A DNA stretch of 64,000 nucleotides from Novakomyces olei (taxonomy: Eukaryota): the NCBI GenBank assembly GCA_016906335.1, contig JADEYG010000015.1, positions 434,001-498,000 of the forward strand, in the 5' to 3' direction. A program made the translations under genes and the position numbers. Numbering within the stretch: the stretch's first letter is position 1; each line of letters opens with the position of its first letter. A model generated the notes under the pieces. That model was not told where the DNA came from, did not search any database, and worked only from the letters and a program-made list of their open reading frames with translations. This document shows, piece after piece, positions 3,301-61,466 of the stretch.

Positions 3301-5639
3301 ATGGTGCAATCAAGCGTTCTCGGTTTCCCTCGGTAAGTCGGCTTTCTACCAGAGTTGTCGGTTCTGCAATTGATGCTAATTTATTTTATAGAATGGGCCC
3401 CAACCGTGAGTTGAAGAAGGCACTTGAGTCATACTGGGCCGGCAAGTCTACGGCACAAGACCTTTTGGCCACTGGCAAACAAATCCGCAAGGACAATTGG
3501 CTGCTGCAAAAGTCTCAGGGTGCGGATATCATCCCCTCAAACGACTTTGCCTACTATGACCAGGTGCTGAACCATTCAGTTCTCTTCAACGCCATCCCGG
3601 CAAAGTACCAAGGTCTGGCTCTTGATCCGCTGGATGTTATGTTTGCCATGGGCCGTGGCCACCAGAAGGGCGGTATTGATGTCCCCTCGCAAGAGATGGT
3701 GAAGTGGTTCGATAGCAACTACCATTACATGCGCCCTGAGGTTTCAGAGGAGACACAATTCAAGCTGGCTGCCACTACTCCAGTCGATGAGTTCAATGAG
3801 GCTAAAGAGCTTGGTATCAAGACCAGACCTGTTCTTGTAGGCCCTGTAACCTTCTTGTACCTGGCGAAGGCTGCTGCTGGCTCTAAGGTTAGCCCTATCG
3901 CTCTTTTACCCAAGCTTTTACCCGTCTACGTGGAGCTTTTGAACAAGTTGGCCGAGGCCGGTGCGGAATGGGTACAGATCGATGAGCCTATCGTCGTTTA
4001 CGATCTGCCACAGGAGATCAAGGACGCCTTTGCTCCTGCTTATGAAGCGCTTTCAAAGGCTTCAGTAAAACTGCTGTTTACCACTTACTTTGGTGACATT
4101 GGCCCTCACTGGTCCATTGTCCAGGCTTTGCCCGTGGACGGTATTCACTTTGACCTGGTCAGGTCTCCCGGCCAGATTGAACAGATCTTGTCCGAGTTTA
4201 AGGGCGACAAGGTTATCTCTCTCGGTCTTGTTGATGGACGTAACATCTGGCGCACTCGGTTCAAGACTGCCTTTGAGCAGGTGGAGAATGCTGTGCAGGA
4301 ATTCGGGTCAGACAAGGTTATTGTCGCTACTTCTTCCTCGCTTTTGCATACTCCTCACACACTCGAGAGCGAGCACAAGTTGGACGCTGAGATCAAGCAA
4401 TGGTTTGCCTTTGCCAAAGAGAAGGTCAAGGAGGTGGCTGTTCTTGCCACTGCTGCCAATGAAGGCCCCGCTAAAGTCCGGGGTGACTTTGAGGCCAACG
4501 AGGCCGCTCATGAGGCTCGTGTAAAGAGCAGCATTACCTATGACCCTGCTGTCAGAGACCGAGTCAAGGCAGTAAAGCCTGCTGACCTTGATCGCCCTTG
4601 CCCCTTCCCTGAGCGCCGTGAGGCCCAAAAGACGCTTAATCTGCCTCTTTTCCCCACTACCACCATTGGCTCTTTCCCGCAAACAAAGGAGATCCGTGTC
4701 CAGCGTAACAAATTTACAAAGGGCGAGATCAATGCAGAGCAATACGATCGATTCATTGAGAAGGAGATTGAGAGCGTTGTTCGTTTCCAGGAGGAAATCG
4801 GACTCGATGTCCTCGTGCACGGAGAGCCAGAGCGTAACGACATGGTTCAGTATTTCGGTGAGCAAATGAAGGGCTTTGCCTTTACGCAAAGCGGATGGGT
4901 CCAGTCCTATGGCTCCCGCTGTGTACGGCCCCCCATCGTTGTCGGCGACGTCAGCCGTCCTGAGGCAATGACGGTAAAAGAATCGAAATACGCCCAGTCT
5001 ATTACCAAGAAGCCCATGAAGGGCATGCTCACGGGCCCCGTGACCATTATCCGCTGGTCTTTCCCTCGTGACGATGTCACCCAGGATGTGCAGTTGGTAC
5101 AATTGGGTCTTGCTATCCGCGATGAAGTAAAGGACCTTGAGGCTGCTGGTATCTCTGTTATTCAAGTAGATGAGCCTGCTTTGCGCGAGGGTCTGCCTCT
5201 GCGCCACAAGGACTGGGACTCTTACTTGGAATCGGCGGTGAACAGTTTCCGTTTGGCTACTGCAGTGGCCGCCAAGGCTACTCAGGTTCATTCTCATTTT
5301 TGCTACTCTGATTTCAACGATATTTTCCCGTCTATCCAGGCTCTTGATGCCGATGTTATCTCTATTGAGGCCTCAAAGTCTGATTTGAAACTTATCAATG
5401 CCTTCAAGGCCTATGGCTACACTTCGTACGTCGGACCGGGTGTTTACGATATCCACTCTCCACGTGTTCCCTCCGTCGAGGAGATCAAGGAGCGTCTGCA
5501 GCAGTTTTTGAGCGTAGTAAAACCGGAATTGCTGTGGGTTAACCCTGACTGCGGTCTCAAGACCCGTGGATGGGACGAGACTCGCCGTTCGCTGATCAAC
5601 ATGGTTGAAGCTGCAAAATTCTACCGCTCAAAGTATTGA
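3301..5639 (+). CDS. MET6: Cobalamin-independent methionine synthase, 2 exons
   Basis: True start MVQSSVLGFPR at 3301; intron 3333-3391 (GTAAGT..GCTAAT..TAG). Motifs KWFDSNYHY, HGEPERNDMV, HFCYS, WVNPDCGLKTR. Confidence 0.97.
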
Positions 5640-7503: not shown

Positions 7504-7950
7504 CTATGGTACAACGGATAATCCAACACTCTTGGCCGTGCCTAGTACGCTCTTTGCAATAGACTCTAATGGCACTCCAGAAAGGTTGGCATCTTTTGCT
7601 TTGATTAGAGCAATCTCATAGACTTGCTTTAGACTGACTTGGCCTGATACTTGCCGTCCTGGAGTTTGTGCGCCTTTCTCGATTCCCGCAGTTTTCATCA
7701 ACAGGTAAGAAGTTGGCGGGGATTTTGTCTCAAACGTAAACGTCCGATTTGGTTTTACCGTGACCACTGTCGGCACGGGCAATCCGGGTTCAAGGGCTCC
7801 CGTGCGAGCATTAAACTCTTTACAGAAATCAATTGACTTTACGCCTCTTGCTCCGAGTGCCGGACCCACTGGAGGCGACGGAGACGCTCCTCCGGCAGGA
7901 ACGATTAGCCGGATCATGACATTCTGAGCAGCCTTGGCTGATTTAGACAT
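7504..7950 (-). CDS. MRPL19: Mitochondrial ribosomal protein uL11m
   Basis: [50 protein letters not shown]. Confidence 0.95.
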
Positions 7951-8102
7951 ACTGCTGTTATGTTAGCCGAGCTCTCGACACACTCAAGAGACGCAGAAAG
8001 AAAAGCATTGTATACACTGTCCTGTAAAAGCATAGATCCTTGAGAAAAAAGAAAAGTATAAAGAAACTGATCGCCTCTTGCCAAGTATCTCTTTGCTTGG
8101 AT

Positions 8103-8190
8103 TGCCTCTGTCGAAAGATGAAAAGATTTAATTATTTGTTTTAATCATGGAAAGTTTCATGATTAGCATGGATAATAATTCTTCCTCGGC
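8103..8190 (-). ncRNA. snR53: Box C/D snoRNA, snR53-like (guide for the 18S Am796-equivalent)
   Basis: Minus strand TCCATGCTAATC-ATGA(D')..ATGATTAAAA matches the recalled yeast snR53 core; guide is antisense to 18S AUUAGCAUGGA. Terminal stem TGCC/GGCA flanks variant boxes AGGAAGA and CAGA. Lies in intron 8224-7955. Confidence 0.75.
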
Positions 8191-8370
8191 AGCAAAGATA
8201 ATGAAAAGCAAAAATAAGCATTACCTTAATTTATATTGACCAGAACCGCGCGTTTGTGCGATCGGTTCTCCGTCCCCACTTTTATATTCTGGACGAACGT
8301 CAAATTCTTTGCCGCCTGTACATTGTTAACACTAATCCCAACAACGCCAATAAAGCTGCACGAGATATGT

Positions 8371-8448
8371 GATCAGGTAATCGAACCATATTTTCGTCTT
8401 CATCAGATTCAGAATTTGATAGTAGACTAATATTCGGGCTCATCATCT
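8371..8448 (-). ncRNA. Box C/D snoRNA with two rRNA antisense elements
   Basis: C box ATGATGA (8446-8440), D' CTGA, C' CTGATGA, D CTGA (8376-8373). D' guide TACTATCAAAT (18S AUUUGAUAGUA); D guide ATGGTTCGATTA (25S UAAUCGAACCAU). Lies in intron 8479-8316. Confidence 0.85.
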
Positions 8449-8641
8449 TCAATCCGGCAGAGTAGTGCAAATAACTTACCTTTTGATGTATTTGAAACAC
8501 AAGCAGGTACTATGGCCTCTGCTCGGTCCGGAGAATTTCAAGTCTTTATTGGTACGGCTCTTGAATTAGCATCAAATCCTTCGAGACTATAAAGATAGAT
8601 ATAGAGTGTGATATTGAGCCAATGCTCTTTCATATTCTTTT

Positions 8642-8745
8642 CAGCACATTGTTGTTCAGAATAATGGGTGTTTGGCATCCCGAATGTCAATCGATCATTA
8701 AGATCAGCCTGGGGCGACAACTTTATTCATCCTGTTACAATGCTG
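8642..8745 (-). ncRNA. snR67: Box C/D snoRNA, snR67/SNORD31-like (guide for P-loop Gm2619-equivalent)
   Basis: C box AGGATGA (8733-8727); D' guide GTCGCCCCAGG-CTGA pairs with LSU CUGGGGCGGC, and the +5 rule gives the second G. D box 8659-8656; terminal stem CAGCATTGT/ACAATGTGCTG. Lies in intron 8786-8560. Confidence 0.8.
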
Positions 8746-9866
8746 CCTCACTGGCAGTCTGAGCAGTACAGAAACAAGTTACCTACCTCGAACCTTTGAG
8801 CGTTTGTCGATGGACAAATTTTTCCTGTCAACGCAAGGCAACCGATTATTTCAGTATATGATAAATATTACTTGGAGAAAACCCTGACAGGTCCTAGATT
8901 TCTTCTACCAGAAAACCCTGCGCGTTGATATTATAGAATGACGTTGATTAAAGATAAGTGTGTTCTGCATTGGGAAATGTCGAGCGGGCATGAAATGATT
9001 CTTGATTTGCTGGCACATGGCAATTCACGCCTGCATTACGCCTTTTTATCAGCAGCAGTCTGCGTCAGAATTGGTTGGCGCTAGACTTGAGCCCAGCAAA
9101 AGATGGAGTTTTAGAATTGTAGTCTTTTGTTCTGTTGATGTATAGATAAATAGATTGGCAATGACTATGTGGAGAAATTAAACAATAGTTTGGCTTCACG
9201 AACGCAACATGGACTGTCGACAATGAAATAATAAACACAATTAAGCTCGTTTTTGTTAAAGCTGTACAACCAATTATGTACGCAATGTGCGCTCTCATAA
9301 TCATCTAGGCTTGCAATGCAATCCGTCTCATATTTCACACTACGGCTTTGTCACTTATAAGATTTCCTATTTCTTCTTACGCGGGCGGTATATAACAATA
9401 TCATTAATGAAATTATTGATAAATAATAATTACCAAATTAATTGAAGGGTGAGCACGAGGCGGTATTTGAAGCAAGAAACAGGTGTTTTGCGAGGCAACA
9501 GAGGATAATTTTCGGCTAAATCGAGTTCAGTCTTATCTGAAATTGATTGGATGTATTTGTTCGGCTCTTTATTGTGATAAATATTGCGATATTCGACTGA
9601 ATCTTCCGGGGCGGCATTTGTGTCGTAAAAAACGATTGAACAAACACATAAAAAAGGTCCAGGAGGCATTTAAGAGACTGAAACTTTTATCAAAAGCAAA
9701 TCAGCCATACGATCATTTCAGCCGAGTTCTCGTTCTGTTTAGGAGGCAAGGTTTAAGAAAAATCTAAAAGAACTGAAAAGACAAGAAACAACGCAAGACC
9801 AACAACAGCAAAGAAAAGAAGGGCCGTCTGATAAACAGGCAAGGACCGGTCAAAAAGGGTTCATAA

Positions 9867-10664
9867 ATGAATGATATGGTTAATTCAGGTTCAAAGGCGC
9901 AAAATGAGGCACAAAATGATACATATAATGCAAATAAAAGTAATAAAGCTCGAAAAAGGTTTGAAAGTTCCGATTTAGAACCGAGCACAGCTGAAGGGAG
10001 GTCAGCGGGATCAAACGACGACAATGCTACGAAACGCGCTTCACACAAATTACCAAGCGCAAAAAGTCTTTCATTATTTCCTTATTTGCAACATCATTCT
10101 TATGAAGATCCAAAGAGAGGAGGCAGAAAGCCAGGACAAATAAATATTGCTCGGAAGACTCGAGCTTCTTCTCCCGGATCAAACGTGACTCGATCTCGCA
10201 GTGCGTCATTGGCTCGAGATGACTTACAATTCGATCCTTCATTACTAAATTTGGATTGTCTGGGTATAATAAACAACCTGCGAGTCGCACAAAACCTTCC
10301 GGCTCTTGACAATATTGATTCATTATTAAATGAGGATAATCAAAAGAATGGATTCCCCTATGAAGATACAAGGACAGGTGGCAGTCGAGGTCGGGGAAGA
10401 GTAAGAGGAAGAGCCAGAAGCCGGGGTCGAGGCGGGAGTAATCATAGCGCCACGGAACGCAAAGATAGCAATGCTAACACTAGAGGACCTCATTGGCTCG
10501 AAAGCATGGATACGACGTACTCTATTGATGTAACGAAATTGGACAAGAACAAGGTGGAAGCTTCCATACATGATGCGCTTGCTGTACTTGATCGATTGCA
10601 TGAGTCGTGGATGTGGCTTGAGCTGGGTAAAAATGCAAACAAGCAACGAAATGTCGGAAAATAG
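9867..10664 (+). CDS. Hypothetical basic protein with RG-rich tract; may have upstream exons
   Basis: 265-codon ORF with KRGGRKPG, RGRGRVRGRARSRGRGG and a predicted helical C-terminus; no family recognised. Confidence 0.5.
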   Translation: MNDMVNSGSKAQNEAQNDTYNANKSNKARKRFESSDLEPSTAEGRSAGSNDDNATKRASHKLPSAKSLSLFPYLQHHSYEDPKRGGRKPGQINIARKTRASSPGSNVTRSRSASLARDDLQFDPSLLNLDCLGIINNLRVAQNLPALDNIDSLLNEDNQKNGFPYEDTRTGGSRGRGRVRGRARSRGRGGSNHSATERKDSNANTRGPHWLESMDTTYSIDVTKLDKNKVEASIHDALAVLDRLHESWMWLELGKNANKQRNVGK

Positions 10665-11167: not shown

Positions 11168-12529
11168 ATGCGACTAGGATCGCAAGTGCTACGCAATTTG
11201 CGCCTCAATATGGCAGAGTATGTGAACGGATAATAGCGTTTGCTAAACTATTAGGAAAAAGCCTTTAAAATTTTATGATATTGGGTTCAATGGCATCGGT
11301 AGTCTTGTGGTGTTGACTACAAACTAACAAGGCAAGATAGTGTATACCACGGTTTTTACCACGACAAAAGGCACCATGAGCGTAAGACAGACCGAACCAA
11401 GCGTAGCTAATGCAAAGACGACCTGGAGCAAGTGTTATCGCGAGCCAAGGCGGTTGGTGTACAAAAACTTCTTTTGACAGGCGATGATCTGGAAGGATCG
11501 CGACAGGCTCTTGAGCTGGCCAAGTCTGATGGTAAGCCAATTGGCGATCATTTTTTTTCCCAACGATGCTCGAATGATCTAAATTTAATCGACAATGAAT
11601 TGTAAATTGTGGTTTGTCTGATCTGATAATAGACTCGTATGTTTCTACGGTGGGTGTGCACCCGTGCCGAGCACAGAGTTTTATCGCGGATTTATCTCAA
11701 ACGTCCGAGCTAAAAGCTCTCGCTATTGAGGGCCAGAGATTGGGCAAAGTTCGGGCATGGGGCGAATTAGGGCTTGATTATGACCGAACTCATTTTGCGG
11801 ATATAGAGACACAAAAGCTAGCCTTTCGACACCAATTAGAGGCTGCGGCGACTTTAGACTTGCCTCTATTTCTGCACTGTCGAAGCTCAGTCTCTGATTT
11901 TCTAGACATTTTATCGCCTTTTCTTCCATCACTCCCAAGACGCGGAGTGGTACATTCGTTCACGGGTACCGTTGAAGAAGCGCAAAGGATAATATCTCAT
12001 GGCTTTTATATCGGTATCAATGGATGCTCTGTCCGTGACGAGCAGGGAATAGATGTCGTTAAAGCACTACCGATTGATAAGATCATGTTGGAAACAGGTA
12101 CAATTATTTCAACAGTTCCATAAACATCTATTTCCCTCTTTTTATGCCATTTATTTTGTGTCGGCCAATCTTTGAGTCACGTAGCACTACGCTTTCAAAA
12201 TTACAAGGACTGTTTGACTTGCTTTACACTCACAACTTTTATTACCCTCAATTACGTGATTATGTCGAACTCAAAATCTAATACTAGACGCGCCTTGGTG
12301 TGAGCCGAGACCGAGCCATGCTTCGGCCAAATACCTTTCGTCGTACCCATTGAATGTTTTCGAGTCGGTGAAAAAGGAAAAGTATCGGCCAGATTATATG
12401 GTAAAAGGACGCAACGAGCCCTGTGTGCTTCCACGAATAGCCTGGGTCGTGGCGCAAGTCAAAGGAATACCACTGGACGCTCTGGCGGAGACGGTATGGA
12501 ACAATACAGTACGCGTCTTTAATGAATGA
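11168..12529 (+). CDS. TatD-family DNase (TATDN1-like), 6 exons
   Basis: Spliced reading KFYDIGFNG|DSVYHGFYHDKRHHE|HDLEQVLSRAK..STVGVHPC..GELGLDYDR..LFLHCR..VVHSFTG..MLET|DAPWC..KGRNEPC; stop 12527-12529. Confidence 0.88.
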
Positions 12530-51460: not shown

Positions 51461-52566
51461 ATGGCTCAGCACGACGATACAGGCATGTGGGGCCTCAGTC
51501 CCGGAACAACGCCGCCCGAGTCGCCGCCTGCTATCGTATACGACGATACAGTAGAGAAAAATGTCAAACAAAGTATGCCGTTATTTCGATTTTGCCATTT
51601 CACGCGTCTTTGCCTGGTTTTGTTTCGACTTTTTATGCCGCTCCAATTGCCATGATCCCCAACTTTTTCTGCTGGGGTCTTGACATTTTTGCAATGCCCT
51701 TGCAATATTTTTGCCGTGCTTTGTTTATTTTATAATGAAATCTGTTTGAATCTTTTTATGCTAAAAAATGTCATTCTAATTCTCTTTTCCGACTGTTTTT
51801 ATCGGGTTGCAAACAGTCATCTCTATTGCGGAGTTTTACTATTTTTCCGATTCTTAGTGGCTTTCCTACTCTCTCTGTTCAATGCGTTTAATAACACTTA
51901 TTACTCAAACCGTATTAATAGCAATGTCTTGCACTCCTTGCACATCTTTCTTCTTCTAGCTCTAATTTTACAGTCATGATTCAACAATCGCAAACTATAC
52001 TGGCAGTCAGTGAGGCTTTACAGTCAAACTCGTTAGAGGTCTTTGTTACTGCGCTGCTCAAATCTGCCGACAACCCTGGGTCAAGGGTTTGCGTTTGTGG
52101 TGTAGGAAAGTCTGGTATTATTGGCCGCAAATTCGTAGCGACTCTGAGCTCTATCGGCGTTCCTGCTTTCTCTATGAATGCCGCTGATGCAATGCACGGA
52201 GACCTTGGCATGTTGTCACCACATCGGGATGTGGTTATACTTATCTCAAACAGTGGGGAAACTGTGGAACTGCTTACTTTAATCCCACACATCCGTCGTA
52301 TTGGTGTTGCTTCACTTCTTGCCATTACTCGCTGTACGGACAGTAAACTGGCCAAGCTTTGCGACTGTAGCATTGCTCATGGATTTTTACAAGAGAATGA
52401 AGGCAAAATTCCATCTTGTTCAACTACGGCAGTTCTCTCACTGTGTGATGCTCTGGCTATTACTACGGCAAGAATGCGGATTTCAACAACTGAAGACTTT
52501 CGGCTAAGGCACCCTGGAGGTGCTATTGGCGAGGGCCAGCCAGGGCCGTTTGGGGGAATAGTCTAG
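51461..52566 (+). CDS. KpsF/GutQ-type SIS-domain phosphosugar isomerase without CBS domains, 2 exons
   Basis: GVGKSGIIGRKFVATLSSIG, DAMHGDLG, SNSGET, PSCSTT, HPGGAIG; intron 51573-51973 joins exon 1 in frame. Confidence 0.85.
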
Positions 52567-60731: not shown

Positions 60732-61155
60732 TGGCGGCAACCTTAAATTGCAGTCGAGCTATAAATTAACCATTGAGATGATGGGTCAGTTTTTTTTTAT
60801 AATAAATATACAACGATTTGTTCTGCGACATACATTGATAGACTGGTGTTTTATGTATAATTTTATAATAATTACTGAGATAGCGATAATACGTTCAAAA
60901 ATAATCGTTTAAGAGTAATCATTTCAGAATAATCGTTTCAAAATAAAAAGATAAATTTGAGGGGACAAATAGCAGCATCAAACAATCACTGTCGCAGGGC
61001 GAGTTGCGATAATGGACTTGCGTTGGCAATAAAATGTACGCATACGACAATTAAGTCTCTTGGTTTCGCAAAGTATGGGTCTGGCTACACGCTGAGACCG
61101 AATGGCCCAATTATTGTTTTATTCCCTCTGTTTCAAAGATTATTAAACTATGAAA

Positions 61156-61466
61156 GTGTGTAGACTAATCGCTTGAACGAACGACTCAACTGGGTGAGTC
61201 GCCAACACAAGGATCAGTCATGGAATTCTCGAGGTAATGAGGATCCAATGACATTTCTTTCCTCCCCTCACCAGAACCACTATATTGATTTAGAGCAATA
61301 AAGGGGCAGAATAGGGAGATATTTGTGTACCCACGTCGAGTAATATGAAAGACACGAGTAAAGGACAAGGTAATAGTTTCCCTTCAGTCAGAGACCATTC
61401 GCGCTACAATTGAAAGCACAAAAGTCTCAATTGATAGCACAAACGGCCTCTGGCTGCAAGGGCAAA
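61156..61466 (-). ncRNA. Structured H/ACA-like snoRNA (one long RNA or two in tandem)
   Basis: G-U-rich hairpins fold best on the minus strand; H boxes AAACTA (61379-61374) and AAAGAA (61260-61255); final hairpin followed by ACA at 61161-61159. Confidence 0.6.

Follow-up and report, generated by a model that had tools for sequence, protein, structure and literature searches.

Among the fungal clusters of box C/D small nucleolar RNAs (snoRNAs), the closest to the locus described here is that of Saccharomyces cerevisiae snR67 and snR53, one of the five polycistronic snoRNA clusters of this yeast (bioRxiv 10.1101/352906), where snR67 targets 25S-Gm2619/Um2724 and snR53 targets 18S-Am796 (PMC8307265). 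The fungal C/D clusters described so far are housed in non-coding, UHG-like hosts (PMC3596301, PMC2780460); the Neurospora crassa cluster hosts contain short open reading frames (ORFs) and were taken as non-coding (PMC2780460), and snoRNA clusters of budding yeasts underwent de-intronization, according to studies that cite Mitrovich et al. 2010. Protein-coding hosts of intronic snoRNAs include four ribosomal protein genes of Schizosaccharomyces pombe (PMC4138321) and 27 cytoplasmic ribosomal protein genes of Drosophila (PMC2246290). Here, we analyzed a stretch of 64 kb of fungal nuclear DNA with 43% G+C (Novakomyces olei contig JADEYG010000015.1, positions 434,001 to 498,000; the whole stretch is called the window, and positions are counted from its first letter), in which three box C/D snoRNAs, one per intron-like interval, are located in the minus strand at 7955-8786, directly 5' of the gene for the mitochondrial ribosomal protein uL11m (MRPL19). 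With one snoRNA in each intron-like interval, this locus corresponds to the snR67-snR53 polycistron of S. cerevisiae, and its last exon is probably protein-coding.

As in S. cerevisiae, the snR67 and snR53 families were found in identical 5'-to-3' order and both D' guides are conserved; unlike in that yeast, a third snoRNA lies between them, splice signals are placed around each snoRNA, the Um2724 guide is missing, and an ORF follows the last acceptor. With the UHG-like hosts (N. crassa clusters I-V and the clusters of PMC3596301), the locus shares, as far as the available text of those studies goes, one snoRNA per intron, short and poorly coding exons, canonical splice signals, and a content common to yeast polycistrons, whereas here the last acceptor would join a leader devoid of ATGs to the conserved uL11m ORF of 148 aa. 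As reported for the S. pombe and Drosophila protein-coding hosts, snoRNA output would depend on transcription and splicing of an mRNA; those hosts, however, are mostly genes for cytosolic translation with the introns between coding exons, whereas here all the introns would be part of the 5' untranslated region (UTR) of a gene for a mitoribosomal protein. In the portions of the literature available to our search, which did not cover supplementary files, we found no description of a mitoribosomal protein gene hosting a fungal snoRNA cluster. The locus departs from the UHG-like arrangement in the extra snoRNA between the snR67 and snR53 families and, probably, in the coding last exon. An earlier annotation of this DNA, made from the letters alone (hereafter, the sequence-only reading), had taken as known both that snR67 and snR53 are co-transcribed in S. 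cerevisiae and that fungal clusters usually have non-coding hosts; the former agrees with the polycistronic unit of bioRxiv 10.1101/352906, and the latter with PMC2780460 and PMC3596301.

Results

Arrangement of the Locus

The locus carries, in the order of transcription, the snoRNAs, splice motifs and ORF listed in Table 1. The sequence-only reading had placed three introns here, each holding one C/D snoRNA, and the splice motifs were indeed found at those positions, with one C/D RNA in each interval.

Table 1. Features of the snoRNA-uL11m locus, from 5' to 3' along the minus strand
Feature	Positions	Strand	Details and basis
Two exact copies of the 11-nt motif CAGGGTTTTCT	8876-8920	-	34 nt apart; ~90-135 nt 5' of the first donor
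Putative exon 1	8787-8860	-	3' end set by the donor at 8786; 5' end at 8860 is a guess
Intron 1, 227 nt	8560-8786	-	GTAGGT 8786 ... GCTAAT 8570-8565 ... AAG 8560; branch A 6 nt before the acceptor G
snoRNA 1, likely snR67/U31-clan homologue	8644-8743	-	Rfam, boxes, external stem
Exon 2, 80 nt	8480-8559	-	ATG-free
Intron 2, 164 nt	8316-8479	-	GTAAGT 8479 ... GTTAAC 8330-8325 ... CAG 8316
snoRNA 2, canonical double-guide C/D RNA, no Rfam family assigned	8373-8446	-	Box pattern, guide pairing
Exon 3, 91 nt	8225-8315	-	ATG-free; TATAAAAG-like (~8288) and TATAAAT-like (~8235) motifs
Intron 3, 270 nt	7955-8224	-	AAG/GTAATG 8224 ... GCTAAC 7967-7962 ... CAG 7955; second CAG ends at 7952
snoRNA 3, snR53 / N. 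crassa CD11 homologue with variant boxes	8103-8191	-	Rfam, guides, stem
uL11m (MRPL19) coding exon	7504-7950	-	148 aa, intronless, ATG at 7950, stop included; Pfam, PDB relatives

The intron rules of this genome were learned from the GT...AG intervals that are required to join long open frames in the window. These introns have donors GTAAGT, GTGAGT or GTATGT, a branch point CTAAC or CTAAT whose A is 3-13 nt from the AG, and lengths from 55 to ~400 nt. Introns 1 and 2 fit these rules well; in intron 3, the branch point and the acceptor are ideal, but the donor lacks the G at +5. The window background, per kb and strand, is 1.34 strict donors (GTRNGT) and 2.14 branch-point-plus-AG units, and at these rates the ordered placement of such signals around three successive snoRNAs is very unlikely by chance: the probability of a donor 20-60 nt 5' and a branch/AG unit 40-160 nt 3' of all three snoRNAs was, as a rough estimate, of the order of 1e-5, with distance windows chosen post hoc.

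Upstream of the first donor, the CAGGGTTTTCT pair is a putative promoter element of the host transcript. These two copies are the only matches in the window at up to one mismatch, and the 11-mer could not be tied to any known factor. In the exon 1 region, we also spotted by eye an RRPE-like GAAAAATTT motif. A plus-strand ORF starts at 9867, leaving ~1.9 kb between it and the uL11m ATG.

The uL11m Gene and Its Leader

The translation of 7504-7950(-) was matched by the Pfam profiles Ribosomal_L11_N (PF03946; 2.7e-24) and Ribosomal_L11 (PF00298; 1.6e-26) and is of the bacterial L11 type. Its best solved relatives are uL11m chains in PDB (E 4e-48 to 9e-46), and a protein search listed 120 homologues of 134-206 aa, mostly 146-149 aa, with up to 68% identity, the named ones being annotated as mitochondrial L11/YmL19. 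From these matches, we assign the ORF to mitochondrial uL11m rather than to cytosolic uL11. The PDB chains align from residue 2-5, and the ATG at 7950 is therefore taken as the true start. An N-terminal extension of uL11m encoded in the upstream exons was considered and ruled out: the exons are ATG-free, and the homologues begin at the same methionine.

No ATG occurs in exon 2, exon 3 or the 4-nt leader, as the sequence-only reading had noted for the exons, and, also in agreement with that reading, the uL11m ATG follows 4 nt after the last acceptor. The branch point and acceptor there are strong (GCTAAC-8 nt-CAG), and their position is indirect support for continuity of the host with uL11m. 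The would-be spliced leader is ATG-free for 354 nt, counting the 179 nt 5' of the first donor (8967-8787), exons 2 and 3, and the 4 nt before the start codon. In the introns, by contrast, 17 ATGs occur over a total of 661 nt, and six of these fall in the 366 nt that are not part of a snoRNA. At the background ATG density, such a run has a probability of ~0.003-0.005; exons 2 and 3 alone were ATG-free in 201 of 5000 shuffles. Since ATG depletion suits a translated mRNA and not a non-coding host, it counts for continuity with uL11m. The distance from snoRNA 3 to the uL11m ATG is 152 nt (8102-7951), and this interval includes two ATGs that an unspliced leader would carry.

snoRNA Families and Guides

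The gathering scores of the two Rfam families concerned are 55 bits for RF01177 (snR67) and 70 bits for RF00338 (snR53). Guide pairing was scored against heterologous ribosomal RNAs (rRNAs), i.e., eukaryotic ribosomal DNA (rDNA) contigs that are contaminants of prokaryote assemblies, collected as 57 rDNA-primer loci by an internal transcribed spacer 1 (ITS1) primer scan; 300 shuffled guides scored against rRNAs of this set were used as control. Many assemblies filed as bacteria or archaea (L045-L101) contain such contaminant contigs with eukaryotic rDNA, and L082, L086 and L094 have a complete eukaryotic small-subunit rRNA along with a whole or partial large-subunit rRNA. In addition, an RNA-virus-like contig from a viral collection (L044, 2810-2860) has near its 3' end a ~40-nt stretch matching the conserved large-subunit region around primer LR5, with no Rfam rRNA call; this piece may be a captured host fragment or the result of chimeric assembly.

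snoRNA 1 was aligned at 8654-8737(-) to the full length of RF01177 (clan CL00053, U31/snR67; model positions 1-83), with 44.9 bits and E-values of 3.8e-7 in a 2-kb search and 1.2e-5 in the whole window. It is likely homologous to snR67, short of curated Rfam membership. Its boxes are C AGGATGA (8733-8727, with one C-box change), D' CTGA (8707-8704), a C'-like element (8698-8693) and D CTGA (8659-8656), and the minimum-energy fold closes a 7-bp external stem between 8743-8737 and 8650-8644. The D' guide is almost identical to the snR67 family consensus in the Rfam alignment and formed 11 bp, with 1-2 G-U pairs, at one large-subunit rRNA site in L048, L078 and L082, a result equaled by 42 of the 300 shuffled guides. 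We take this site to be G2619 in yeast numbering. For the D guide of the 25S-Um2724 type, no duplex of at least 9 bp covering position 5 was found in the heterologous rRNAs, the best score being 8 (shuffles as good, 261/300). This absence is expected, because the available text of PMC5824354 reports that the snR67 D guide for Um2724 is absent in fungi outside Saccharomycotina.

snoRNA 2 has fully canonical boxes (C ATGATGA, 8446-8440; D' CTGA, 8412-8409; C' TGATGA, 8405-8400; D CTGA, 8376-8373), and its C-D'-C' pattern occurs once in the window and in none of 100 shuffles. No Rfam family was convincing for it, the best being snoZ223 with 19.4 bits and E 2.3. Its D guide formed 11-12 bp at a single large-subunit rRNA site, universally conserved, in 12 of the 57 loci, and 27 of the 300 shuffles did as well; its D' guide formed 11 bp, two of them G-U, at a small-subunit site, which was no better than shuffles (105/300). 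The methylation sites predicted for the cluster include the large-subunit ...CUAAUCGAACC... site and a small-subunit site near position 122; the predicted targets of snoRNA 2 were not found in the target tables of PMC2780460 or PMC3511168, as far as these were available. The terminal stem of snoRNA 2 is weak in the fold, and the folds of all three snoRNAs are not unusually stable (z -0.1 to -1.1), in line with C/D RNAs.

snoRNA 3 was aligned to RF00338 (snR53) at 8117-8187(-) with 27.3 bits and E 0.64, below the gathering score. When compared with the snR53 consensus, 17 consecutive nt comprising the D' guide and the D'-like box were identical, and so was the 10-nt C'-like box. The elements read as C AGGAAGA (8186-8180), D'-like ATGA (8160-8157), C'-like ATGATTA (8148-8142) and D CAGA (8110-8107), and a 4-bp terminal stem, TGCC (8191-8188) with GGCA (8106-8103), adjoins the boxes. 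The D' guide formed 11 bp, with one G-U, at small-subunit position 801 of L086 and at the same site in four other loci (shuffles as good, 51/300). For the D guide, read from CAGA, a duplex of 13-15 bp was obtained at one and the same large-subunit site in 16 of the 57 loci, at position 363 in L086; the duplex reached 15 bp without G-U in L047, and the 14-bp match to L082/L086 was reached by only 5 of the 300 shuffles. N. crassa CD11 is listed with the targets 18S-Am793 for D' and 26S-Am356 for D (PMC2780460), and the guides of snoRNA 3 correspond to both, D' with 18S and D with 26S, where L086 position 363 is equated with A356 from the similar numbers of the two positions within a conserved region, without alignment. 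Since both guides match the CD11 targets, CAGA is argued to be a working D box, and it is in the variant C and D boxes that snoRNA 3 is unlike CD11.

Other Features of the Window

The methionine synthase gene of the window seems to have a ~59-nt intron near its 5' end at 3333-3391(+) (GTAAGT ... GCTAAT ... TAG). Its product has at most 65% identity to named proteins, the nearest being that of Schizosaccharomyces japonicus, followed by many of Pezizomycotina, and one further relative is at 86%. Together with the uL11m identities, this points to an ascomycete-like fungus lacking close sequenced relatives in the collections searched. At 51573-51973(+), a 401-nt candidate intron (GTATGC ... TCTAAT ... 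CAG), long for this genome, ends 2 nt before the in-frame ATG of a SIS-domain ORF, and the whole-window Rfam scan reported nothing inside it. A match to the S. pombe snR100 family, resembling an H/ACA snoRNA, was found at 61154-61321(-) with 41 bits (gathering 80; E 2.7e-6 in the whole window).

Discussion

The best reading of this sequence, and one we regard as reasonably probable, is a single minus-strand transcript that runs from the snoRNA host through uL11m. The sequence-only reading had proposed that one transcript yields both the guides and the uL11m mRNA; this is plausible on the signs available in the DNA, i.e., the acceptor 4 nt before the ATG, the ATG-free leader and the short distance. 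Its wording of a spliced leader should be replaced by spliced 5' UTR, as nothing suggests trans-splicing. The sequence shows the snoRNAs, the splice motifs and the ORF, whereas a continuous transcript, splicing at these sites and accumulating snoRNAs are inferred. In this reading, an RNA polymerase II unit would start near 8830-8870 of the minus strand and run to the end of the uL11m gene, giving a pre-mRNA with three 5' UTR introns, each with one box C/D snoRNA. The introns would be released by splicing and debranching and trimmed by exonucleases, and the resulting small nucleolar ribonucleoproteins (snoRNPs) would guide 2'-O-methylation of cytosolic 18S and 25S rRNA. The pairing of the guides with conserved rRNA sites, above all that of the D guides of snoRNA 3 and snoRNA 2, speaks for such a function, and we regard the snoRNA assignments as sound, subject to the variant boxes of snoRNA 3 and to the Rfam scores below threshold. 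Ahead of the uL11m reading frame, the joined exons would form a ~230-260-nt leader free of upstream ATGs.

Several observations weigh against this single transcript. The donor of intron 3, GTAATG, has no G at +5, whereas all 27 ORF-joining candidate introns of the window were found with a +5 G donor. The only likely precedent in the window is a likely intron of a TatD-like gene at 12098-12287(+), with donor CAG/GTACAA; there, the Pfam profile reaches position 202 at the final residue of the exon and continues from 214, 38 residues into the next exon, so that another acceptor or an insertion may be involved, and this precedent is not airtight because 27 extra residues follow the acceptor. The acceptor of intron 1 is AAG. 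A 274-nt intron of a Vps4-like AAA ATPase gene, 23438-23165(-), has the same end, CTAAT-6 nt-AAG. The Pfam AAA profile runs across this intron, with profile position 43 at the residue directly preceding it and position 46 at the second residue following it, and this continuity indicates that AAG acceptors near the branch point are used in this genome. In the Rfam scan at gathering thresholds, no family was called anywhere in the window, both flanking snoRNAs being below threshold; of the scan proposed with the sequence-only reading, the homology of the flanking pair to snR67 and snR53 was recovered at sub-threshold scores, and the middle RNA was left without a family. Four of the six guide elements of the cluster were no better than shuffles against the heterologous rRNAs, and the D' guides of snoRNA 1 and snoRNA 3 carry weight because they are identical or near-identical to the family guides, not because of pairing statistics. 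In addition, two TATA-like motifs in exon 3 could provide a separate start site for uL11m, either together with snoRNA 3 or without it.

Synteny also gave no support. We collected 43 uL11m loci from metagenomes, at 62% identity or less, of which 34 have more than 300 nt upstream and 25 of these more than 1 kb. Homologues of the three snoRNAs were found upstream of uL11m in none of these 34 distant loci (blastn-short, up to 2.5 kb upstream). Only chance matches of 9-14 nt were obtained, and inspection of the ones in L020-L022 and L031-L033 showed that they are not snoRNAs. Likewise, exact snR67/snR53 guide words in a snoRNA context were absent from the uL11m loci, the sole upstream match (L013) looking like coding sequence. 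Conservation of the snoRNA-uL11m linkage thus does not extend to distant fungi, and the synteny of snR67/snR53 with MRPL19 that had been suggested as a check was not seen in the loci compared.

Some of these points would fit two overlapping but separate units, an explanation that we consider rather unlikely though deserving of serious attention. Here, a non-coding host made of exons 1-3, whose terminal exon or 3' region would contain snoRNA 3, would end before the ATG, and uL11m would have its own promoter, either in exon 3, in which case it would use intron 3, or within the last 150 nt. The TATAAAAG-like and TATAAAT-like motifs, the weak third donor and the lack of conserved synteny with uL11m all speak for it, and so do two points that tell against a single transcript, as non-coding hosts are the rule for fungal clusters in the available text of PMC3596301 and PMC2780460, and one snoRNA of N. 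crassa cluster III is encoded in an exon (PMC2780460), which sets a precedent for placing snoRNA 3 in a non-coding exon at the end of the host. However, the consensus GCTAAC...CAG right before the ATG requires an upstream donor, and the lack of ATGs in exons 2 and 3 and in the 179 nt preceding the first donor has no reason in a non-coding host. Moreover, ~150 nt leave little space for both a terminator and a promoter, and two upstream ATGs are found there.

The splice-like motifs could also be a product of chance, the snoRNAs being cut from an unspliced polycistron, as S. cerevisiae snR67-snR53 is processed (bioRxiv 10.1101/352906), and uL11m an unrelated neighbor. The motif density in the 880-nt region is indeed only ~2x background, but the ordered succession of donor, snoRNA and branch/AG three times over, the clear use of such introns by this genome, and the intron-per-snoRNA organization usual outside Saccharomycetaceae (PMC2780460, PMC3596301) make this explanation hardly credible. 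It is somewhat less far-fetched, and still very improbable, that intron 3 is an ordinary 5' UTR intron in which snoRNA 3 is a decaying relic forming no snoRNP, so that only two snoRNAs would be functional. Its C box AGGAAGA and D box CAGA are indeed non-canonical when compared with RUGAUGA and CUGA, which also counts against a single transcript with three working snoRNAs, and its Rfam score is low; nevertheless, both guides and the internal boxes are intact, the D guide reaches its longest duplex without G-U, and the terminal stem adjoins the boxes. The kink-turn G and A residues are retained as well. In the established C/D kink-turn model, both box changes would fall on the two facing U residues, turning U.U into A.A and keeping the G.A pairs, which speaks against a relic.

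Returning to the single transcript, co-transcription would couple the snoRNA and uL11m outputs at the promoter, but that selection has favored a functional link between the two ribosomes is speculative. The sequence-only reading had gone further, linking the biogenesis of both ribosomes, and with none of the 34 distant uL11m loci sharing the linkage this claim found no backing. The linkage may be an accident of gene order; in another fungal cluster, the flanking proteins are not conserved across fungal lineages, according to the available text of Canzler et al. An elaborate version, in which the snR67-snR53 host was captured as an obligatory uL11m 5' leader, with the supply of this mitoribosomal protein set by a promoter of the ribosome-biogenesis type and gated by the splicing of a weak last intron that houses the variant-box snoRNP, and with selection for coupling cytosolic ribosome production to mitoribosome assembly in cis, seems to us improbable.

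For the snR53 family, a homologue with both facing kink-turn U residues changed would be of interest to snoRNA specialists. Moreover, the D guide that was called species-specific in the N. crassa paper (26S-Am356) is also seen in a distant ascomycete. If confirmed by complementary DNA, the locus would be a fungal C/D snoRNA cluster in a protein-coding host, with every snoRNA intron in the 5' UTR. If true, it would offer a snapshot of a non-coding host and a neighboring mRNA in the course of fusing, the reverse of the de-intronization of budding yeasts.

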